Below, in pieces: positions 5,460 to 61,858 of a stretch of 64,000 nt of DNA. The notes under the pieces were generated by a model. The model saw only the letters and a list, made by a program, of their open reading frames with translations. It was not told where the DNA came from and ran no database searches. Source of the stretch: Eledone cirrhosa (taxonomy: Eukaryota); the NCBI GenBank assembly GCA_964016885.1, contig OZ024742.1:351354001-351418000 (forward strand). Direction: 5' to 3'. The position numbers and the translations under genes were made by a program. Numbering within the stretch: position 1 is the first letter of the stretch; each line of letters begins with the position of its first letter.

Positions 5460-7225
5460 CTAAAGGAATAAGGGTGGGGAGTTCAGGCCGGGGGGAGTGT
5501 GGGTCAGTAAGATGAAGATGGTTCTTTGTTCGACTCTAAGGAGATTGGCGTGTGTTCCGTGGAATTGGAGTAGGCCACAGACTGTGAGATGGCGTGCGTA
5601 ATGTCCAGGGGCAACAAAGTGGCGGGCGATGGGGGAACTACCACCGAGACGAATATCCCAGAGGTGCTCAGTGAATCGGTCCGCCAGGCGGCGCCCCGTC
5701 TGTCCGATATAAGTCGGGTGAGAGCGGTGTGGACGAGAGAGAGGGTAACCTCTGCGGATGAAATGGCTGACTAGGGAAAGGGCCTGGGACTCGAAGTCAG
5801 CATCTCGGCTACAGAGGCGGCGGATCCTGAGGAGTTGGGAGTAGGGAATAGAGTGTTTAGTGTGTGGGGGTGGGAAGAGGGGAAGTCGAGGTAAGAGTGG
5901 GAGTCAATTGGTTTGAAGAAGGCGGAGGTGACGATGGATTGGTGGGAAGGGTCGAAGGCGACGGAGATGTCTAAGAAATGGACGTGGGTGGTGGAGATAG
6001 AGGTGGTGAAGTGGAGGGAGGCGTGGGAGGTGCAGAAGACGGAGAAAAAGGAGTCGAGCTGTTCTCGGGTGAGGATCCTGGCTCCGATACATCGTCAATG
6101 TAACGACCGTACAGTTCGGGCGTGGGGCCGGTGTACTGGGCAAAGATTTGGGCCTCAACATGGCCAACAAAAAAGGTTGGCATAGTTCGGGCCCATTCAT
6201 GTACCCATGGCTATACCCGTGACCAGTTGGTAAAACTCACCCGAGAAGGAGAAACAGTTGAGGGTGAGGACCAGCTCGGCGAGGCGAAGGAGGGTGGAGG
6301 TGGAGGGAATGGGGGAGGGGCGAAGGTCGAGGTAGAGTTTGAGGGCGCGTAGGCCGTCGACGTGGGGGATGACGGTATAGGGGGACTTGATGTCTAGGGT
6401 GAAGAGGAAGGGCTGTGGGCCGGGTGGGTAGGTGAAGGAGTCGAAAAGGCGCAGGGCGTGGTTGGTGTCGGAGATGTGGGAGGGGAGGGTGGTGACAAGG
6501 GGGGCGAGGATGGAGTCAAGAAAGGCGGAGATGAGTTCGGTGGGGCAGTTGCAAGCGGAGACGATGGGGCGGCCGGGGTTGTCGGGTTTGCGGAGTTTGG
6601 GGAGGAAGTAGATGGTGGGGGTGCGGACGATGAGGTGGGAAGCAGTGGGGGGGGGGGGGGGGGTAGGAGGAGGAGGCGACAACGTCTTGGTTGGTGGAGG
6701 AAACTTGTTGTTGGTAGAGAGGTGTGGGATCGGAGTGTAGAGGGCGGTAGAAGAGGGGTTTACAGAGCTGCCTGAGAGCTTCGGCCGTGTAGAGGTCTGC
6801 GCGCCACACCACCACGGCGCCTCCCTTGTCCGCCGGTTTGATGACGATGTCATCTCGGCTACGGAGGGATCGGAGAGCGAGGAGTTCACCCCGTGAGATA
6901 TTGTACCGTTTGGAACGGTGGCGGAAGTCGAAACGATTTACTGCGCTACTGCTGGCATCGACGAACGCGTCCAGGGTGCTAAATTGCCCTGGTGCCGGCG
7001 TCCAAGAAGATGGTCCTCGACCCAGGTGGGGAAACGGGTCTGGGGCGTCCGGAGCCGGTGGCGGTTGGCCGAAATGTGGCTGTAGCTTCGTGCGTCGCAC
7101 GAATCGCTCGACTTCCATTCGGGTGCCAAACTCGTCGCTGTGCGGAGTGTGGGGTATGAAGCGAAGGCTTCTACTAAGGAGTGAGCGCTCAGGTGCGGAG
7201 AGGGGGAGGTCAGGGTGTATCTGAG
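5460..7225 (-). pseudogene. PLE reverse transcriptase + GIY-YIG endonuclease, frameshifted
   Basis: Across frames: IKPADKGGAVVVW, PGRPIVSAC, FTLDIKS, GIAMGT..GPNYANLF, RYIDD, SIPYSQLLRIRRLCS, RRGYP, then YIGQTGRRLADRFTEHL...PPGLN and a stop at ~5460. Confidence 0.92.
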
Positions 7226-8419
7226 ACAAGTTATTCATATGTGACCTGTTTACGACCGGAATTCGTTAGCAACGAAAACCTGTTTCATGTGATTCAATTA
7301 TTTCTATTGTTTCAACGTTTTAGATCAAATATATGATAACATTCGATATATCAAAAGATAATAGAAATGCTACATACATAAATTATACAATTCAGTGAAG
7401 TAAACTGTGATCGGGATGATAGGATTAAATAACAAAAACATATAATCGATAAATTTGATTGTAATAGGTTTGGTATGTTAGTAAATAGATATATATATAC
7501 ACACATACACGCCAAATGTACATACACATATGCTCAATTTTATTATCTCTGGAAAAGTTTCAAAGAACAGAAGATTATCGGTGATCACTCATAATTCATG
7601 TTTTATTTTGTATATGGTGGATCAGAAAATAAAACTCTATCTTCGCTGACCGAATGAATGGTAAACGAGTTTAGCGTCGTACTTTATAATCTGGACAGCG
7701 CCGGAATGTCTTAAATTGAGACGCGATTTTACAAGTGTACTAGGATTCACGAAGTACACTTATTGAAGGCTTAAACGACCTTCTACATTGATATTCTAAC
7801 CCTAAAATTATGTATTCTTCCATAACTTAGGGAAGGGAAATTATTTCTGCCTAGTACTGAGGTGGACTTATATGTAGGGAAATAGGAAGATAGTATTGCC
7901 CCAATACAACTGATTTCTACATTTAATTTCCAGTTCCATCGCAACGCGTCAGCAATTCTGTCTTGCCTTCAATTCCAATTTATTATCTTTCTATTTCAAA
8001 TATGTTTTTGGAAAATCTTTGCTACCTATATGCAAATACGAGTAACAGCGAGGGACACACATACAAACGATATAATAACTCAAATTATCTTCTGCCTTCA
8101 AACTAAATATTAATGTGGTCAACTTTCTCTCACGAGTCTGATGTCTGTCGAATAAAAATAAGTAATTCTGCTTGGAGGAAAATTTATATATATGCTGTTA
8201 ATTTAAATATTTTTGTTTACGATCTGAAAATAATTAATTGTTATCACATTTGTAGAGCATATTAATCTGTTCTATCATTTAGACAGCTCTCAACTGTATG
8301 CAGGGATTCAATAAGTACAAGATCCCGAAGCATTGTATTAGTGAATCTAACATAAGGAAGATACAGAGAAAACTTAATTCTAGATAATATTTAGAAGAAA
8401 GATCTTGAATAAACCGAAC

Positions 8420-8563
8420 GGCGGTGGATTGTCAGAATCGGTAGAGGGTCGAACGCCATGATTTGCAGCAAAAAGTTACGGCCCTTTATGGTGTGAGTTC
8501 AAATCCCGCCAAGGTTAACTTTGGCTTTCATCCTTACGAGGGTGTGTGCCAAACGTAGAAACA
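8420..8563 (+). mobile_element. tRNA-derived SINE, family A, internally deleted
   Basis: GGCGGTGGATTGTCAGAATCGG...GAGTTCAAATCCCGCC...TTTCATCCTTACG joined directly to the 3' tail. Confidence 0.8.
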
Positions 8564-9236: not shown

Positions 9237-9283
<47 letters not shown>

Positions 9284-9570
9284 AAATAACGAAACGAAAT
9301 TAAATTTCGTTTCGCTTCTAACTCACTTTTGTATGACTGACGCTTAAATAATTAAGTTAAAAGTGTACATCTACATATGTATACGGAAATATTAGTATGC
9401 ATAAAAATACACACATGTATACATATGTACATGTACTGAGTTTTTCACTGGACACTTTACTGTGAGTGTCCAGCTAGTCTGTATGTAAACAAACAGACAA
9501 ACCGGGTTTTAGAGTCATACGGGTTTTCAAGGAAACACATTTCCTCTATTCTCCAGAGAGCCAGACAGGA

Positions 9571-9613
9571 ATATTGGACTAGTTTCGATGTTATTACATC
9601 TCATCAGCAATAT
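9571..9613 (-). ncRNA. Type I hammerhead ribozyme
   Basis: Reverse complement of 10093-10135. Confidence 0.9.
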
Positions 9614-10092
9614 AAACCCATCTTCCGGCTTCTCTAGAGAATCGTAAAAGCACATATCGTTATATGCTTTTTCTATGAAAATTAGTAGTGGGCAGACTAA
9701 TTTGCATAGAACGTGAGTCATTGTACAAACCCGGTTTGTCTGTTTGTTTACATACAGACTAGCTGGACACTCACAGTAAAGTGTCCAGGGAAAAACTCAG
9801 TACATGTACATATGTATACATGTGTGTATTTATATGCATACTAATATTTCCGTATACATATGTAGATGTACACTTTTAACTTAATTGTTTAAGCGTCAGT
9901 CATACAAAAGTGAGTTAGAAGCGAAACGAAATTTAATTTCGTTTCGGTATTTGTTTTTATCGTTTCCGCTGAACCGGTGCGTACAATGACTCACGTTCTA
10001 TGCAAATTAGTCTGCCCACTACTAATTTTCATAGAAAAAGCATATAACGATATGTGCTTTTACGATTCTCTAGAGAAGCCGGAAGATGGGTG

Positions 10093-10135
10093 ATATTGCT
10101 GATGAGATGTAATAACATCGAAACTAGTCCAATAT
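10093..10135 (+). ncRNA. Type I hammerhead ribozyme, canonical core, GUC site
   Basis: ATATTG CTGATGA GATGT AATA ACATC GAAAC TA GTC CAATAT. Stem I can extend via TCTCTAGAGAAGCCGGA/TCTGGCTCTCTGGAGA. Confidence 0.92.
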
Positions 10136-10232
10136 TCCTGTCTGGCTCTCTGGAGAATAGAGGAAATGTGTTTCCTTGAAAACCCGTATGACTCTAAAAC
10201 CCGGTTTGTCTGTTTGTTTACATACAGACCAG

Positions 10233-10323
<91 letters not shown>

Positions 10324-10347
10324 TATACATAATAATTATCATTATTA

Positions 10348-10545
10348 GGGGCGGTGGATTGGCAGTATCGGTAGAGGGTCGTACGTCATGCTTTCCAGCA
10401 TAGTTACGTCCCTTTACGATCTGAGTTCAAATCCCGCCGAGGTTGACTTTGCCTTTCATCCTTACGGGGTCGATAAAATAAAGTACCAGTAATGCACTGG
10501 GTAATTGCTGGCCTTGTGCCTAAAGTAGGAACAATTATTATTATT
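10348..10545 (+). mobile_element. tRNA-derived SINE, family A, full length
   Basis: GGGGCGGTGGATTGGCAGTATCGG (A box), GAGTTCAAATCCC (B box) and (ATT)n tail. Confidence 0.9.
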
Positions 10546-10743
10546 GTGGATTGGCAGTATCGTTAGAGGGTTTGACGCCATGCTTTCCAGCATAGTTACG
10601 TCCCTTTACGATCAGAGTTCAAATCCCGCCGAGGTTGACTTTGCCTTTCATCCTTACGGGGTCGATAAAATAAAGTACCAGTAATGCACTGGGTAATTGC
10701 TGGCCTTGTGCCTAAAGTAGGAACAATTATTATTATTATTATT
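10546..10743 (+). mobile_element. tRNA-derived SINE, family A, second tandem copy
   Basis: Near-identical to 10348-10545 and starts in that copy's (ATT)n tail. Confidence 0.9.
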
Positions 10744-45490: not shown

Positions 45491-48400
45491 CATAGAATAT
45501 TCGAAAATATTCTGTATGTTTATAATAAACATTTTGAAGACCTAATCGCTATAGAATAGAATACGTCACGTATTACAATTAGATTCTCGATAAAAGCAAG
45601 GGAAGTAATCTACGCGTTTCATTCTTGTTAGAAATCATCAGGACTACATATCCAGTGCTTTTATCGAGAATGACACAGCTAGAGACTTATAGAATACTTA
45701 GCTGTGTACAGGAACTGGTTTGAAAGAGCGGTTGCCGGTCCGGCAGAAATTAGAAATTGGAATAAATGCTCTGAAATAGCGATATATATGTGAATATAGA
45801 CATAGAATATTCGAAAATATTCTGTATGTTTATAATAAACATTTTGAAGACCTAATCGCTATAGAATAGAATACGTCACGTATTACAATTAGATTCTCGA
45901 TAAAAGCAAGGGAAGTAATCTACGCGTTTCATTCTTGTTAGAAATCATCAGGACTACATATCCAGTGCTTTTATCGAGAATGACACAGCTAGAGACTTAT
46001 AGAATACTTAGCTGTGTACAGGAACTGGTTTGAAAGAGCGGTTGCCGGTCCGGCAGAAATTAGAAATTGGAATAAATGCTCTGAAATAGCGATATATATG
46101 TGAATATAGACATAGAATATTCGAAAATATTCTGTATGTTTATAATAAACATTTTGAAGACCTAATCGCTATAGAATAGAATACGTCACGTATTACAATT
46201 AGATTCTCGATAAAAGCAAGGGAAGTAATCTACGCGTTTCATTCTTGTTAGAAATCATCAGGACTACATATCCAGTGCTTTTATCGAGAATGACACAGCT
46301 AGAGACTTATAGAATACTTAGCTGTGTACAGGAACTGGTTTGAAAGAGCGGTTGCCGGTCCGGCAGAAATTAGAAATTGGAATAAATGCTCTGAAATAGC
46401 GATATATATGTGAATATAGACATAGAATATTCGAAAATATTCTGTATGTTTATAATAAACATTTTGAAGACCTAATCGCTATAGAATAGAATACGTCACG
46501 TATTACAATTAGATTCTCGATAAAAGCAAGGGAAGTAATCTACGCGTTTCATTCTTGTTAGAAATCATCAGGACTACATATCCAGTGCTTTTATCGAGAA
46601 TGACACAGCTAGAGACTTATAGAATACTTAGCTGTGTACAGGAACTGGTTTGAAAGAGCGGTTGCCGGTCCGGCAGAAATTAGAAATTGGAATAAATGCT
46701 CTGAAATAGCGATATATATGTGAATATAGACATAGAATATTCGAAAATATTCTGTATGTTTATAATAAACATTTTGAAGACCTAATCGCTATAGAATAGA
46801 ATACGTCACGTATTACAATTAGATTCTCGATAAAAGCAAGGGAAGTAATCTACGCGTTTCATTCTTGTTAGAAATCATCAGGACTACATATCCAGTGCTT
46901 TTATCGAGAATGACACAGCTAGAGACTTATAGAATACTTAGCTGTGTACAGGAACTGGTTTGAAAGAGCGGTTGCCGGTCCGGCAGAAATTAGAAATTGG
47001 AATAAATGCTCTGAAATAGCGATATATATGTGAATATAGACATAGAATATTCGAAAATATTCTGTATGTTTATAATAAACATTTTGAAGACCTAATCGCT
47101 ATAGAATAGAATACGTCACGTATTACAATTAGATTCTCGATAAAAGCAAGGGAAGTAATCTACGCGTTTCATTCTTGTTAGAAATCATCAGGACTACATA
47201 TCCAGTGCTTTTATCGAGAATGACACAGCTAGAGACTTATAGAATACTTAGCTGTGTACAGGAACTGGTTTGAAAGAGCGGTTGCCGGTCCGGCAGAAAT
47301 TAGAAATTGGAATAAATGCTCTGAAATAGCGATATATATGTGAATATAGACATAGAATATTCGAAAATATTCTGTATGTTTATAATAAACATTTTGAAGA
47401 CCTAATCGCTATAGAATAGAATACGTCACGTATTACAATTAGATTCTCGATAAAAGCAAGGGAAGTAATCTACGCGTTTCATTCTTGTTAGAAATCATCA
47501 GGACTACATATCCAGTGCTTTTATCGAGAATGACACAGCTAGAGACTTATAGAATACTTAGCTGTGTACAGGAACTGGTTTGAAAGAGCGGTTGCCGGTC
47601 CGGCAGAAATTAGAAATTGGAATAAATGCTCTGAAATAGCGATATATATGTGAATATAGACATAGAATATTCGAAAATATTCTGTATGTTTATAATAAAC
47701 ATTTTGAAGACCTAATCGCTATAGAATAGAATACGTCACGTATTACAATTAGATTCTCGATAAAAGCAAGGGAAGTAATCTACGCGTTTCATTCTTGTTA
47801 GAAATCATCAGGACTACATATCCAGTGCTTTTATCGAGAATGACACAGCTAGAGACTTATAGAATACTTAGCTGTGTACAGGAACTGGTTTGAAAGAGCG
47901 GTTGCCGGTCCGGCAGAAATTAGAAATTGGAATAAATGCTCTGAAATAGCGATATATATGTGAATATAGACATAGAATATTCGAAAATATTCTGTATGTT
48001 TATAATAAACATTTTGAAGACCTAATCGCTATAGAATAGAATACGTCACGTATTACAATTAGATTCTCGATAAAAGCAAGGGAAGTAATCTACGCGTTTC
48101 ATTCTTGTTAGAAATCATCAGGACTACATATCCAGTGCTTTTATCGAGAATGACACAGCTAGAGACTTATAGAATACTTAGCTGTGTACAGGAACTGGTT
48201 TGAAAGAGCGGTTGCCGGTCCGGCAGAAATTAGAAATTGGAATAAATGCTCTGAAATAGCGATATATATGTGAATATAGACATAGAATATTCGAAAATAT
48301 TCTGTATGTTTATAATAAACATTTTGAAGACCTAATCGCTATAGAATAGAATACGTCACGTATTACAATTAGATTCTCGATAAAAGCAAGGGAAGTAATC

Positions 48401-49388
48401 TACGCGTTTCATTCTTGTTAGAAATCATCAGGACTACATATCCAGTGCTTTTATCGAGAATGACACAGCTAGAGACTTATAGAATACTTAGCTGTGTACA
48501 GGAACTGGTTTGAAAGAGCGGTTGCCGGTCCGGCAGAAATTAGAAATTGGAATAAATGCTCTGAAATAGCGATATATATGTGAATATAGACATAGAATAT
48601 TCGAAAATATTCTGTATGTTTATAATAAACATTTTGAAGACCTAATCGCTATAGAATAGAATACGTCACGTATTACAATTAGATTCTCGATAAAAGCAAG
48701 GGAAGTAATCTACGCGTTTCATTCTTGTTAGAAATCATCAGGACTACATATCCAGTGCTTTTATCGAGAATGACACAGCTAGAGACTTATAGAATACTTA
48801 GCTGTGTACAGGAACTGGTTTGAAAGAGCGGTTGCCGGTCCGGCAGAAATTAGAAATTGGGATAAATGCTCTGAAATAGCGATATATATGTGAATATAGA
48901 CATAGAATATTCGAAAATATTCTGTATGTTTATAATAAACATTTTGAAGACCTAATCGCTATAGAATAGAATACGTCACGTATTACAATTAGATTCTCGA
49001 TAAAAGCAAGGGAAGTAATCTACGCGTTTCATTCTTGTTAGAAATCATCAGGACTACATATCCAGTGCTTTTATCGAGAATGACACAGCTAGAGACTTAT
49101 AGAATACTTAGCTGTGTACAGGAACTGGTTTGAAAGAGCGGTTGCCGGTCCGGCAGAAATTAGAAATTGGAATAAATGCTCTGAAATAGCGATATATATG
49201 TGAATATAGACATAGAATATTCGAAAATATTCTGTATGTTTATAATAAACATTTTGAAGACCTAATCGCTATAGAATAGAATACGTCACGTATTACAATT
49301 AGATTCTCGATAAAAGCAAGGGAAGTAATCTACGCGTTTCATTCTTGTTAGAAATCATCAGGACTACATATCCAGTGCTTTTATCGAG
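45491..49388 (-). ncRNA. 13 tandem type I hammerhead ribozymes (minus strand, 310-bp period)
   Basis: Each unit contains GTAATCTACGCGTTTCATTCTTGTTAGAAATCATCAGGACTAC, the reverse complement of the HHR core. Confidence 0.9.
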
Positions 49389-49392
49389 TGTC

Positions 49393-49481
49393 ATTCTCGA
49401 TAAAAGCACTGGATATGTAGTCCTGATGATTTCTAACAAGAATGAAACGCGTAGATTACTTCCCTTGCTTTTATCGAGAAT
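49393..49481 (+). ncRNA. Type I hammerhead ribozyme (first of 12 plus-strand copies, 310-bp period)
   Basis: ATTCTCGATAAAAGCA ctggatat GTAGTC CTGATGA T TTCT AACA AGAA T GAAAC GC GTA GATTAC ttccct TGCTTTTATCGAGAAT. Predicted cleavage is after 49453. Confidence 0.92.
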
Positions 49482-52400
49482 CTAATTGTAATACGTGACG
49501 TATTCTATTCTATAGCGATTAGGTCTTCAAAATGTTTATTATAAACATACAGAATATTTTCGAATATTCTATGTCTATATTCACATATATATCGCTATTT
49601 CAGAGCATTTATTCCAATTTCTAATTTCTGCCGGACCGGCAACCGCTCTTTCAAACCAGTTCCTGTACACAGCTAAGTATTCTATAAGTCTCTAGCTGTG
49701 TCATTCTCGATAAAAGCACTGGATATGTAGTCCTGATGATTTCTAACAAGAATGAAACGCGTAGATTACTTCCCTTGCTTTTATCGAGAATCTAATTGTA
49801 ATACGTGACGTATTCTATTCTATAGCGATTAGGTCTTCAAAATGTTTATTATAAACATACAGAATATTTTCGAATATTCTATGTCTATATTCACATATAT
49901 ATCGCTATTTCAGAGCATTTATTCCAATTTCTAATTTCTGCCGGACCGGCAACCGCTCTTTCAAACCAGTTCCTGTACACAGCTAAGTATTCTATAAGTC
50001 TCTAGCTGTGTCATTCTCGATAAAAGCACTGGATATGTAGTCCTGATGATTTCTAACAAGAATGAAACGCGTAGATTACTTCCCTTGCTTTTATCGAGAA
50101 TCTAATTGTAATACGTGACGTATTCTATTCTATAGCGATTAGGTCTTCAAAATGTTTATTATAAACATACAGAATATTTTCGAATATTCTATGTCTATAT
50201 TCACATATATATCGCTATTTCAGAGCATTTATTCCAATTTCTAATTTCTGCCGGACCGGCAACCGCTCTTTCAAACCAGTTCCTGTACACAGCTAAGTAT
50301 TCTATAAGTCTCTAGCTGTGTCATTCTCGATAAAAGCACTGGATATGTAGTCCTGATGATTTCTAACAAGAATGAAACGCGTAGATTACTTCCCTTGCTT
50401 TTATCGAGAATCTAATTGTAATACGTGACGTATTCTATTCTATAGCGATTAGGTCTTCAAAATGTTTATTATAAACATACAGAATATTTTCGAATATTCT
50501 ATGTCTATATTCACATATATATCGCTATTTCAGAGCATTTATTCCAATTTCTAATTTCTGCCGGACCGGCAACCGCTCTTTCAAACCAGTTCCTGTACAC
50601 AGCTAAGTATTCTATAAGTCTCTAGCTGTGTCATTCTCGATAAAAGCACTGGATATGTAGTCCTGATGATTTCTAACAAGAATGAAACGCGTAGATTACT
50701 TCCCTTGCTTTTATCGAGAATCTAATTGTAATACGTGACGTATTCTATTCTATAGCGATTAGGTCTTCAAAATGTTTATTATAAACATACAGAATATTTT
50801 CGAATATTCTATGTCTATATTCACATATATATCGCTATTTCAGAGCATTTATTCCAATTTCTAATTTCTGCCGGACCGGCAACCGCTCTTTCAAACCAGT
50901 TCCTGTACACAGCTAAGTATTCTATAAGTCTCTAGCTGTGTCATTCTCGATAAAAGCACTGGATATGTAGTCCTGATGATTTCTAACAAGAATGAAACGC
51001 GTAGATTACTTCCCTTGCTTTTATCGAGAATCTAATTGTAATACGTGACGTATTCTATTCTATAGCGATTAGGTCTTCAAAATGTTTATTATAAACATAC
51101 AGAATATTTTCGAATATTCTATGTCTATATTCACATATATATCGCTATTTCAGAGCATTTATTCCAATTTCTAATTTCTGCCGGACCGGCAACCGCTCTT
51201 TCAAACCAGTTCCTGTACACAGCTAAGTATTCTATAAGTCTCTAGCTGTGTCATTCTCGATAAAAGCACTGGATATGTAGTCCTGATGATTTCTAACAAG
51301 AATGAAACGCGTAGATTACTTCCCTTGCTTTTATCGAGAATCTAATTGTAATACGTGACGTATTCTATTCTATAGCGATTAGGTCTTCAAAATGTTTATT
51401 ATAAACATACAGAATATTTTCGAATATTCTATGTCTATATTCACATATATATCGCTATTTCAGAGCATTTATTCCAATTTCTAATTTCTGCCGGACCGGC
51501 AACCGCTCTTTCAAACCAGTTCCTGTACACAGCTAAGTATTCTATAAGTCTCTAGCTGTGTCATTCTCGATAAAAGCACTGGATATGTAGTCCTGATGAT
51601 TTCTAACAAGAATGAAACGCGTAGATTACTTCCCTTGCTTTTATCGAGAATCTAATTGTAATACGTGACGTATTCTATTCTATAGCGATTAGGTCTTCAA
51701 AATGTTTATTATAAACATACAGAATATTTTCGAATATTCTATGTCTATATTCACATATATATCGCTATTTCAGAGCATTTATTCCAATTTCTAATTTCTG
51801 CCGGACCGGCAACCGCTCTTTCAAACCAGTTCCTGTACACAGCTAAGTATTCTATAAGTCTCTAGCTGTGTCATTCTCGATAAAAGCACTGGATATGTAG
51901 TCCTGATGATTTCTAACAAGAATGAAACGCGTAGATTACTTCCCTTGCTTTTATCGAGAATCTAATTGTAATACGTGACGTATTCTATTCTATAGCGATT
52001 AGGTCTTCAAAATGTTTATTATAAACATACAGAATATTTTCGAATATTCTATGTCTATATTCACATATATATCGCTATTTCAGAGCATTTATTCCAATTT
52101 CTAATTTCTGCCGGACCGGCAACCGCTCTTTCAAACCAGTTCCTGTACACAGCTAAGTATTCTATAAGTCTCTAGCTGTGTCATTCTCGATAAAAGCACT
52201 GGATATGTAGTCCTGATGATTTCTAACAAGAATGAAACGCGTAGATTACTTCCCTTGCTTTTATCGAGAATCTAATTGTAATACGTGACGTATTCTATTC
52301 TATAGCGATTAGGTCTTCAAAATGTTTATTATAAACATACAGAATATTTTCGAATATTCTATGTCTATATTCACATATATATCGCTATTTCAGAGCATTT

Positions 52401-53036
52401 ATTCCAATTTCTAATTTCTGCCGGACCGGCAACCGCTCTTTCAAACCAGTTCCTGTACACAGCTAAGTATTCTATAAGTCTCTAGCTGTGTCATTCTCGA
52501 TAAAAGCACTGGATATGTAGTCCTGATGATTTCTAACAAGAATGAAACGCGTAGATTACTTCCCTTGCTTTTATCGAGAATCTAATTGTAATACGTGACG
52601 TATTCTATTCTATAGCGATTAGGTCTTCAAAATGTTTATTATAAACATACAGAATATTTTCGAATATTCTATGTCTATATTCACATATATATCGCTATTT
52701 CAGAGCATTTATTCCAATTTCTAATTTCTGCCGGACCGGCAACCGCTCTTTCAAACCAGTTCCTGTACACAGCTAAGTATTCTATAAGTCTCTAGCTGTG
52801 TCATTCTCGATAAAAGCACTGGATATGTAGTCCTGATGATTTCTAACAAGAATGAAACGCGTAGATTACTTCCCTTGCTTTTATCGAGAATCTAATTGTA
52901 ATACGTGACGTATTCTATTCTATAGCGATTAGGTCTTCAAAATGTTTATTATAAACATACAGAATATTTTCGAATATTCTATGTCTATATTCACATATAT
53001 ATCGCTATTTCAGAGCATTTATTCCAATTTCTTATG

Positions 53037-57793: not shown

Positions 57794-59725
57794 AATGAAT
57801 AATAACAGGTAGACATCATAAAAAGGTAATTTATTCCGTGTGCTTACAAATGTTTCCACGGTGGTACTACAGCCTAGTTATGCTAAGTGCAAATTTACAA
57901 CTATTTGCAGAACTCAAATATCCAATGCTGTGACCACTGTATCCTCAGAGCAGAATGGTAAAATGTACAATGTAAATACCCTTAAGTGGGGTTGTTGGGG
58001 AAGATAGAGTAGAAAAGGAAGAGAGAAAAGTAGGGGAGAGGGAGAGAGAGAGAAATATATGCAGGGGTTGGAGAAGTAGGAGAGAGTGGTTTGTAGATAT
58101 CTTAATCAAAATGTTATGGTAGGGCTTTATTATGCTGGTTACTTTTGGAGAGATGCGTTGATAGTTAAGGTCTGAATTATTTATTGCCCCAGAGGGCAGG
58201 TTCATATATGTAGAGAGGGAGGTAGGCCAAAGGCGAGAGAGAGAGAGGGAGTGTAATGGATGTAGACAGAGAGGTAGAGAGGGGACAGACGAAGTTTATG
58301 TGGTGAGTGAACTTTGGGTTTGTAGTAGTAATCTGCGAATTGCACAGAGTTACCATTTATAGTGATAAGCAGTCTATTGTATTGTAGTGTGGGGGAAGAG
58401 AAGGTGGTTAGCTAGAAAGCGATGTTATAGTTACGGGTTCGAATGTTAAGTTATTTTATAGTGAGAGAATTTAGCTTTTAGCTTTTAGTTTGTGGTTGCA
58501 GTATAATGGTCGTTCAATTCTATCAGAAAGTAGTTTGTTTTTGGATTTTAATATGTAAAAGAGTTCAAGGTTACATAACCTGCAGTACTTTAATCCACTC
58601 CGATATGCACTTGCGCTGAAAATATATCCCATTTTAAGGTGAACTGTTGGTTGCGTTCACGGAGTTGCCAGGTCTTGTTGGCGAGCGTGGTCACAAAACG
58701 GTGATTAGGATGTTTGATTGAGAATCGATAACGGTACCAGCGAGATTTAAACGAGGTGGTGGTAGATCCGATATAATACCATTTCTGGTCGTTCGATTCA
58801 ACCGTGCATTGGTAAACAATGTTGGACTTTAGGCATTCATTCTTCAATGGACATCTTTCAGGTAGATGGCAGTTACATTCTTTGTTGTGGGTAGCGGGTA
58901 TACCATGGACAGGTTGTGATAGCAGTGCAGGTGGATTGTGTAATACCCGTCTCCCATTTAGTGGTTGGGAGGCAGATATTACGTTCTGCCCATCTATTAC
59001 TAAAATGTTTTGTTTTGTAGAGTTGTTTAATTGCCTTAAGGTAAGTTTTTTTTAATGTATGCTTCAAGGTTTGGTGCCGTGGAGTATGATAGTCTAATAG
59101 TTTTAGATTTCAGAATGTTGCTGTATTTATGGGAACTAGGGAAATGTTTGTTGATTAACTTAAAGAATGAAAGAGATAGTTTTGTAGTAATCGAGGCATT
59201 AAAAATAGGATTGTACCAGTTATACTTTCTACAACGTGATTTATTTGGTGGTGATTTTCTATTATTAGTATGTCTGGTAGTATAGTGTGTGTGTGCTTGT
59301 ATTTTAGTCCCCCGGTTACGTATTCCTTGATTTCGTGTAGAGCTATGTGTGTTATGGACATTCCTATCAATGTATTCTATTGTATCCCGGTGGTCGGCAT
59401 TCCTTAATGCATTATTGTAGTATTCAGCGTGTTCACTAAAAATATCAGAGTTAGACGATAGACGAGAGATTCTAAGAGAAATACTCCGGGGAACCGATTT
59501 GATCATGGAGAGTGGGTGGTTAGAGTTAAAGTTAATATACGTAATGTTCTCATTCATCTTGTGGAAGGGTAGTATCTGTCCGGTATTTAAATTAAGAGTT
59601 ACGTCCAGAAAGTTTACTACTTTAAGATTGTATTTGTATGTTATTTTTAGACCCAGTTCACTAAAAGATTTTCTAATATTTTTCCGTAGCCTTTCAAGAT
59701 TTTGGTTATTCAAGTTATTAACTAA
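57790..59725 (-). mobile_element. Naiad-like PLE, 5' truncated (RT C-terminal half, GIY-YIG, UTR, HHR)
   Basis: VNFLDVTLNL, SNHP, WYNP, IRLSYS..PN, CNC...CPL..ECL..NIVY.C..YYIGST..FKSRW, CRLC. Frameshifts are present. Confidence 0.9.
57841..57952 (-). ncRNA. Type I hammerhead ribozyme with ~85-nt branched stem II
   Basis: TGCT CTGAGGA TACAGTGGT..ACAGC...GCTGT..ACCACCGTG GAAAC ATTT GTA AGCA. Confidence 0.78.
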
Positions 59726-59741
59726 ATATATATATATATAT

Positions 59742-61858
59742 AAAATCAGGTGGCGAGCATTCCACTTTGATAAATCTAATATAAATGAAAATGTCTCGGA
59801 CTTAAACAAAGTTTTCAAATCCAAAAGAAATCCACCCCCCAACAAACTTTTATCTGACTTTGAAAACGATATAATTTCTATCATACAAGGAGTCAAATTT
59901 AAGAGAAACTTCAAAGACCAGGAATATCTGAAAGGCATTAGGGATAATATTGAGAACTTGGAGAAAACTGAGAAGATCTTGGTAAAATCTGACAAGACCA
60001 ACAACCTCTATGGAGTGCAGAAAGACATGTATAATGGCCTCATACTAAAAGAACTGAGGAAAAAGTACAAGGTAACAGATAAGGCCGAGCTACAGAAAAT
60101 GAATGTTGAGGCATCTTGTATAATGCACGAGTTGGAAATCGAGAACAGAACACAACCTTTCGTGCCCAGGAAACCGAAGATCAATATGAAAGATCATAAG
60201 AGAAATTTCGAGAATGACTTGCCAGTCAGATTGATTGCACCATCAAAATCGGACCTGGGTAAACTAAGCAAAAACATTCTTGACAGGGTGATACAGCAAA
60301 TTAAAAACTTGGGTTGTTTACCTAACCTGAGCTTGTGGAAGGGAACTGGTGAGGTTGTTGAGTGGTTTAAGCAAATTAAATATAACAATAATAATAAGTT
60401 TATTCAACTTGATATTGCTAACTATTATTCTTCCATTACCCCTAATCTACTAAATAAGGCACTAAATTACGCATTCAAACATACAGACCTAACTAGCAAT
60501 GAAATGCACATTATATTATCGGCTAGGAAAACATTGATAGAATTTAATGACCAACTATGGACCCGAGCAGATAGAGATAACAATTTTGACATTACTATGG
60601 GATCATCCGACTCAGCTCAGGTAACTGACCTTGTGGGCTTATTTTTAATCAATTCGCTGCATAGGAAAATACCTGGTACTACCGGAGGTTTATATAGAGA
60701 TGACATGCTTTTACTTATTGATAATAATAACTCTGAACTAAATAGAAAAAGAAAACAAATTACACAATTGTTTAATCACTTTAATCTAAAAATAGAAATT
60801 GAGAATAGCCATAGAATAGTCAACTTCCTAGATATAACATTAAATCTCAACACATGTCTTCACTATCCATTTCACAAATTGAATGAAAACTTAAACTATG
60901 TCAGCTTTAACTCTAACCACCCCAAATCCGTTAAAAACACTATAGTAAACTCTGTTCAATCACGTATCTCTAGAATCTCATCTAATAAAAAGATTTTCGA
61001 CGAAAAAGCCCATTATTACAATGAAGCGTTAGCTAGAGCAGGATATAGTGATAAAATTATGTACATAGATAATGATAAACAAATTAAACAAAATAACAAC
61101 TGTTTTAATTATGGCCACAACCTTAACAACTATAATAGAAAGCATTACAATAATTCCAAAAGCCATAAAAGAAATAGAACTAGGAATATAATATGGTTTG
61201 CCCCCCCCCCCCCCTTCTCACTAAACATTAAAACCCACATTGCTAAACAATTTTTTAAAGCTCTCGATAATCGCTTCCCGAGAACACATAGGTATCACTC
61301 AATTTTCAATAGACATACTATAAAATAACCTACTCATCCACCAAAAATTTAGCGCAAAATATTAATAGAATAAATAACAGGAACTTAAAACCTAGCGATA
61401 ATAGCATAAATAATATACAAGTTAACAAATGTAACTGTAGAGATAGATCTAAATGTCCGTTAAATAACAACTGCTTAGTTAAAAATATAATATACAACTG
61501 TAATGTTAAAACGGACGTTAATTCTTTTAACTACGTTGGTTCTACATCGACGGAATTTAAACTTCGCTATAACAACCACAAGAATTCTTTCACAGATCCA
61601 TCCCAAAAATCTTCAACAGCACTATCAGGCGTACTCTGGCAACTTAGGCATGATAACGTTAGATATTCGACGACTTGGAATATAGTTTCAAGGGGGATTC
61701 CTTTTAATTCATCCTCTGAGACATGTGACCTCTGTGCGGAGGAGATATTCTTTATACTAAAATCTAAAAATTCCCTTAATCTACGGACAAATTTATTCAG
61801 TTGCTGCAGACATAGATTGAACTCAACGTTTAAATATAAATTTAAATTTAAAATGTAA
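59742..61858 (+). pseudogene. Naiad-like PLE RT + C-terminal GIY-YIG endonuclease, near-intact (5' truncated, one frameshift at ~61325)
   Basis: KIRWRAF, SDKTNN, KDHK, PVRLI.P, FIQLDIANYY, ITMGS, GLYRDD, VNFLD, SNHP. After the shift: CNC..CPL..CL..IIY..YVGST..FKLRYNNH..CDLC..E..LN..CRH, stop at 61858. Confidence 0.93.

Follow-up and report, generated by a model that had tools for sequence, protein, structure and literature searches.

Retrozymes, their RNA circles and their PLE origin have already been published (PMC7229834; PMC7761336; 10.64898/2026.07.22.740005), and for the non-LTR retrozymes of metazoans both a circRNA intermediate and a PLE helper have been proposed (PMC7229834; 10.64898/2026.07.22.740005). 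How PLEs come to make tandem and inverted insertions with tails, and by which enzyme animal retrozymes are mobilised, are questions that the literature explicitly leaves open. Here we describe a family of 470-nt units met in a 64,000-nt stretch of Eledone cirrhosa DNA (the window). Like the metazoan non-LTR retrozymes it consists of non-coding, low-GC tandems with a type I hammerhead, and both are highly self-paired and without LTR, PBS or PPT (PMC7229834; 10.64898/2026.07.22.740005). The unit length exceeds the 170-400 nt given in PMC7229834 and falls inside the 51-972 bp of 10.64898/2026.07.22.740005. A plant LTR retrozyme, with a type III hammerhead in its LTRs and a 4-bp TSD (10.64898/2026.07.22.740005), was rejected, as the family is type I, tandem and without LTR.

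The Hydra-clade PLEs share with the 470-nt family the partial tandems, the inverted 5'-truncated copy at the 5' end, the hammerhead, the (TA)n targeting and a tail often found at one end only; unlike them, the 470-nt family has no ORF (PMC8557442). The tail measures 70-75 nt in this family and 160 nt in a 927-aa PLE of the same genome, compared to 30-40 bp in PMC8557442, and where that work describes a frequently one-sided tail, the present counts give a strict one-of-each rule. Poseidon PAc, studied in vitro, is similar in that two internal RT starts bound the tail and the target is AT-rich (PMC11167929). PAc cuts and extends both target strands and was modelled as a dimer, and uncleaved RNA was the dominant in vitro substrate; the two strands showed no difference in start site in that work, which speaks against the present reading (PMC11167929). 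The PAc work as described there left the two strands of one target unlinked, whereas in our data the two sites are mutually exclusive within an insertion.

A palindromic, two-armed retrozyme insertion seems not to have been described in these accounts: the word "inverted" is absent from the main text of PMC7229834, and the results and discussion of 10.64898/2026.07.22.740005 do not describe two-armed palindromes with two fixed ends. The latter reports a PLE pLTR sequence match for 24 of 57 Xenopus families, compared to no match for the 470-nt family among the small part of the PLE families sampled in the present genome. In the largely open-access literature covered, we found no published statement of such an insertion or of a strict one-of-each rule. 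The element class is known, but its end-pairing rule is sharp and extends to three families.

The locus in the window

The 470-nt unit corresponds to positions 9727-10196 of the forward strand, numbered here as phase 1-470. Between a left (9237-9280) and a right (10236-10331) (TA)n target microsatellite lie a minus arm of ~0.96 unit (9281-9726; phase 255 to 470, then 1 to ~229-234) and a sense arm of 1.08 units (9727-10235; phase 1-470, then 1-39), joined head to head at 9722-9730 with an exact overlap of 1 nt. The minus arm starts at 9726 (the complement of 9981) and ends at 9281 (the complement of 9955), where its 3' end is the distal fixed end of the family; it may reach 9276 (the complement of 9960), the terminal bases being ambiguous with TA. 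The preliminary description of the locus had called two inverted arms in different phases, flanked on both sides by (TA)n, with a sense arm that begins and ends alike and an antisense arm that crosses the unit junction, and the alignments bear this out to the base. The minus arm aligns to the concatenated unit in one piece across the junction (score 866) and to the linear sense arm only partially (score 496), while the sense arm closes with a 39-nt direct repeat of its beginning (9727-9765 and 10197-10235, 97% identity), where a second turn of the unit begins. Between the two arms, 6 differences were counted over 443 compared sites.

Within the highly self-paired, non-coding monomer (9727-10196), the proximal fixed 3'-end site (9886-9891, phase 160-165) and the distal one (9955-9960, phase 232-234) are putative reverse-transcription starts 1 and 2, and the 70-75-nt tail between them contains a hairpin (9922-9946, phase 196-220) at which arm 5' ends are enriched; all three lie on the plus strand. 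The 39-nt repeat was also considered as a terminal repeat or PLE tail. This is ruled out by the junction of phase 39 with (TA)n, which is unique, with one exact match genome-wide; the tail proper occupies phase 161-234. Since the phase-39 end occurs once in the genome, the repeat of ~40 nt in the preliminary description is an accident of the window copy. With its ends at 234 and 39, this copy breaks the end pattern of the family, and it would represent a normal distal arm with an atypical partner, produced by aberrant priming or by a later loss of ~120 nt. The single locus originally flagged is an atypical copy, and its value rests with the family. Positions 8420-8541 and 10350-10737 hold a repeat with A- and B-box-like motifs that we take to be tRNA-derived and SINE-like; a 192-nt tandem dimer stands directly after the locus.

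Outer ends in the 470-nt family and in other elements

The search of 3.0 Gb of genome gave 881 first-look candidates for the unit, and the distal junction of phase 234 with (TA)n had 2,193 exact genome matches (control 0). The copies, at 83-99% identity to the window unit, are dispersed in (TA)n, and most insertions are head-to-head two-armed palindromes within it. Arm length ranges from 0.1 to more than 10 units (median arm 497 nt), and in four loci (L068, L083, L102 and L116) arms of 9-10 or more units extend beyond the 5-kb loci. Whereas the 5' inner ends scatter across the unit, the 3' outer ends have fixed positions, phase 160-165 or 232-234, and run into (TA)n, so the phases that had been expected to vary across copies do so at the inner ends and not at the outer ones.

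Three sets of loci were used to count how the ends are paired. Among the 34 best-matching loci plus the window (set A), 20 of 26 head-to-head junctions pair a proximal (157-165) with a distal (233-234) end, in the other 6, among them the window copy, one of the ends is non-canonical, and no junction pairs a site with itself. Set B holds 60 of the first 61 position-ordered distal junctions listed on contig 1, one having been omitted as already included. The partner arm ended at 160-165 in 35 of these, a short stub of that end was present in 6, 3 partners ended elsewhere, 1 was off-locus and none ended at 234; no partner was found for 15, among them 2 arrays that extend past the locus and 1 complex locus. 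Approached from the other side, 15 of 18 proximal junctions (set C; taken from 36 not yet seen among 49 listed) had a partner, and all 15 partners ended at 232-234. Altogether, two-armed insertions with canonical ends use one of each in 70 of 70 cases (69 independent, as L098 and L099 are one duplicated insertion) and the same site twice in none. The fixed, one-of-each 3' outer ends are the signature of a PLE tail, that is, of dual reverse-transcription starts.

The same rule was observed in other elements. A 435-nt sibling retrozyme has one of each end in 4 of 4 head-to-head copies (20 loci), and the 927-aa PLE, with two fixed ends 160 nt apart, in 8 of 8 two-armed copies (36 loci). The latter gave 51,871 first-look candidates and carries the RWK, DKT and CxCX5C motifs, which are marks of the Hydra clade (PMC8557442). 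Its intact 927-aa frames are present at L156:3779-6559 (G000:C5) and L155, with a pLTR, an inverted arm and the 160-nt tail; the pLTR contains a hammerhead-like motif whose core begins in a non-canonical way, and the 927-aa ORF has no sequence relative in PDB. One-of-each start use common to two retrozymes and an intact Hydra-type PLE is countable genomic evidence, and it ties retrozymes to PLE machinery through the anatomy of insertion and not through co-occurrence. A 310-nt hammerhead unit in the window forms a head-to-head array of 12.6 and 11.8 copies in (TA)n (45494-53033), whose two arms end ~50 nt apart in the unit; 22 of its 23 whole units are identical, with a U-U at the base of stem II. 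It is unrelated in sequence to the 470-nt unit (best score 26), and the likeness in design between the window copy and this 7.5-kb array, already pointed out in the preliminary description, holds.

Palindromes in (TA)n could in principle arise at the DNA level, by satellite turnover through fold-back replication or hairpin-capped breaks and with no RNA involved. The unit is indeed hairpin-rich, the 5' ends of arms are enriched at the hairpin of phase 196-220 (16 compared to 6.2 expected), and higher-order repeats occur in L068 and L116. However, fold-back predicts central mirror symmetry, while the arms begin at unrelated phases, and neither the two fixed sense-strand 3' ends, used one of each at thousands of dispersed sites, nor a conserved and covarying ribozyme is explained. 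We therefore regard such an origin as extremely improbable: a DNA-level process is largely refuted for the insertion step and probably acts afterwards on long arrays.

Ribozyme and proposed RNA template

The preliminary description had seen a textbook hammerhead with a GUC site in each arm. Type I hammerheads with GUC are present in both, at 10092-10136 of the plus strand (CUGAUGA core at 10099, predicted cleavage after 10129) and at 9570-9614 of the minus strand (core starting at 9607, predicted cleavage after 9577), but the word textbook goes too far: stem I has 6-7 bp and stem II 5 bp in the sense arm, helix III has 1-2 bp, and Rfam gave no match at gathering score over the whole window. 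Helix III is closed by the palindrome CUAG, an architecture said to need a dimer (PMC4209133). In the family, each position of the C-U-G-A-N-G-A core and of GAAA is kept in 87-88 of ~88 insertions, and a base pair of stem II is exchanged in a compensatory way (A-U in 59 insertions, U-A in 28). It is worth keeping in mind that 8 of 9 predicted Xenopus elements failed to cleave (10.64898/2026.07.22.740005).

No ORF of 120 aa was found over the locus, and the unit is AT-rich. Its predicted fold is more stable than that of shuffled sequences (z = -10.08; 0 of 100 shuffles equally stable). Of 23 common alternative pair states in the predicted global fold, 3 are compensatory, 8 one-sided and 12 breaking, and covariation backs only the local helices.

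The two arms of an insertion resemble each other far more than they resemble other insertions. Median divergence was 0.8% from arm to arm compared to 6.1% between insertions (52 two-armed insertions, each offering 100 or more sites for comparison), and at 62 diagnostic sites the arms agreed in 2,469 of 2,536 comparisons (97%, compared to 58% expected). Each insertion event draws on one template lineage, to which one molecule or two molecules from one source locus both fit. The central junctions have a gap or filler in 24 of 47 cases; the 23 filler-free ones overlap by at least 1 nt in 22 (46% at random) and by at least 4 nt in 7 (2% at random). That an RNA template was copied twice in opposite directions, as suggested for the window copy, is supported by the copies of the family, and the suggestion that it was circular or multimeric is supported by 92 of 123 arms that pass at least one cleavage site, 29 of which pass at least two.

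We infer from the DNA that a circular template is somewhat the better account for most events; for PLE tandems such a template has already been proposed (PMC4209133). A less probable, though not negligible, account is PLE double priming on a linear multimer that was transcribed from long tandem arrays and escaped cleavage, for which no circle would be needed. It would agree with the weak helix III, with the median arm of merely 497 nt, with the existence of arrays of at least 10 units as possible sources, and with the findings for a PLE in vitro, in which hammerhead cleavage was dispensable and unprocessed RNA dominant (PMC11167929). In addition, arm 5' ends are about twofold in excess near the cleavage site, with 16 at phase 396-430 compared to 8.5 expected (p = 0.011 in one of the four windows tested; the 5'-end count leaves out four duplicate or misparsed loci, apart from one arm each of two of them). 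Because of this excess some templates may be linear. In the first set, 5' ends were likewise enriched near phase 400-470, but this was put down to query length bias and set aside.

On the other hand, the units within an insertion are uniform (adjacent units, 72 arms: median divergence 1.1%), whereas the subfamilies are at 83-99% identity to the window copy, and the 310-nt array likewise has 22 identical units among its 23. Copying that truncates at the 5' end cannot alone rebuild long arrays. Of 10 long arms, 5 have only single-unit variants, which also speaks against the linear multimer, and 5 have variants shared between units, which suggests DNA-level duplication in at least some long arms; L068 and L116 show higher-order variant patterns. 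The array at L039:2504-4926 has a period of 924 nt, with alternating 453- and 471-nt units and 99.3% identity at lag 924, and every second hammerhead carries C3-to-U. Thus alternate ribozymes are dead, and its deletion variant, found nowhere else in the genome, is private, which a linear multimer does not readily explain. No source locus was found when one was sought for this period-2 array, and a third match to the dead ribozyme was a separate single-arm copy without the L039 variants. The L039 array may have been left by a dimer circle that was read 2.6 times; DNA duplication fits it too, and it is one case.

Probable PLE helper and proposed mechanism of insertion

With a hammerhead in each unit, tandem low-GC non-coding units and self-pairing, the family has the characters of a non-LTR retrozyme, and it lacks an ORF with RT and GIY-YIG inside the element, by which an autonomous PLE is recognised. 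Its insertions are of PLE type: 5'-truncated partial tandems, an inverted 5' copy, two fixed 3' ends and a microsatellite target. We consider it likely that the family is a non-autonomous, hammerhead-bearing retroelement mobilised by a PLE, probably of the (TA)n-targeting Hydra clade. The same traits, that is the fixed 3' ends, the tail, the inverted 5'-truncated arm and the (TA)n targeting, would also be expected if the unit were pseudo-LTR debris, solo or truncated, left behind by an autonomous PLE and not a self-standing element. The preliminary description had named fixed ends flanking an RT ORF as the case against a circular or multimeric template. The ends turned out to be fixed, while none of 94 loci has a PLE ORF joined to any arm, and the arms reach at least 10 non-coding units. 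The search for an autonomous PLE whose terminal repeat matches the unit gave none among 73 endonuclease-downstream stretches (16 clusters, a small part of the PLE families in the genome), with the exception of one unique chimera.

This chimeric two-armed insertion (window 38930-40290) consists of a truncated Hydra-type PLE ORF and 1.2 units of the 435-nt sibling retrozyme on the minus strand, whose plus-strand partner is a short arm of PLE tail. The sibling unit directly follows the ORF fragment (39430-38930), as pseudo-LTR debris would predict, and it is related to the 470-nt unit (72% identity over 488 aligned nt, score 223, shuffle maximum 51). However, the junction between ORF and sibling has this single instance in 40 scored matches, and a different 3' end is present in 35 further copies of this PLE, for which reason the 470-nt unit was rejected as the pLTR of the PLE at 38930-40235, and we find the debris explanation very unlikely. 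The chimera arose either by a template switch between two RNAs or by a later insertion with deletion, and the latter is favoured because both outer ends are of the distal type.

Consequently, it is the common insertion anatomy and target, and not sequence, from which we infer a PLE helper. That the 927-aa PLE family is this helper is possible, although we would put it forward only as a doubtful candidate. PLE-type double priming, in turn, is very likely to be how the family inserts. Tandem copies would be transcribed, the hammerhead would cut as a dimer and the products would at least partly be ligated to circles. A dimer of the PLE RT-endonuclease would then nick both strands of the self-complementary (TA)n, and the two DNA 3' ends would prime the same RNA, one at phase 160-165 and the other at 232-234. 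From there, each enzyme would reverse-transcribe a variable length of the RNA in the 5' direction, passing the cleavage or ligation site. Microhomology or filler of a few bases would then link the two cDNA 3' ends, and fill-in would follow. In this scheme, self-cleavage and ligation are carried over from PMC7229834 and the use of one site per strand is deduced from our junction counts; double nicking and two-site priming have been seen in another PLE (PMC11167929), and microhomology joining of the two cDNAs is our own suggestion.

The scheme resembles a known process in another group of elements. In L1 twin priming, two target ends prime one RNA and yield an inverted 5' part, with no overlap between the two parts and a variable second site. 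In the 470-nt family, in contrast, both sites are fixed and each arm can copy the whole unit several times. It is conceivable, and we offer it tentatively, that PLE integration as such is a built-in, asymmetric form of twin priming, in which one dimer and one circular RNA with two fixed starts, one per strand, give two rolling-circle cDNAs that prime each other, and that retrozymes are minimal circular substrates that have kept the platform and the ribozyme. If this is true, a single event would account for tail, inverted copy and tandems in every PLE. The mirrored one-of-each insertions suggest a way in which PLEs insert RNA into the two DNA strands simultaneously, and the 470-nt RNA together with the 927-aa open frame make the mechanism of PLE integration directly testable.

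Further hammerhead-like cores, from at least three other repeat families, are found next to (TA)n in the window at 16474, 33926, 31528 and 3967 of the minus strand and at 24287 of the plus strand. Other PLE ORF fragments of several families lie at 59421-61858 (plus), 58590-60007 (minus), 20572-21358 and 5460-7265 (minus), and Pfam on 7 ORF fragments gave one sub-threshold GIY-YIG match only. The fragment at 59421-61858 is nearly whole, in two frames, and that at 5460-7265 presumably belongs to another clade.
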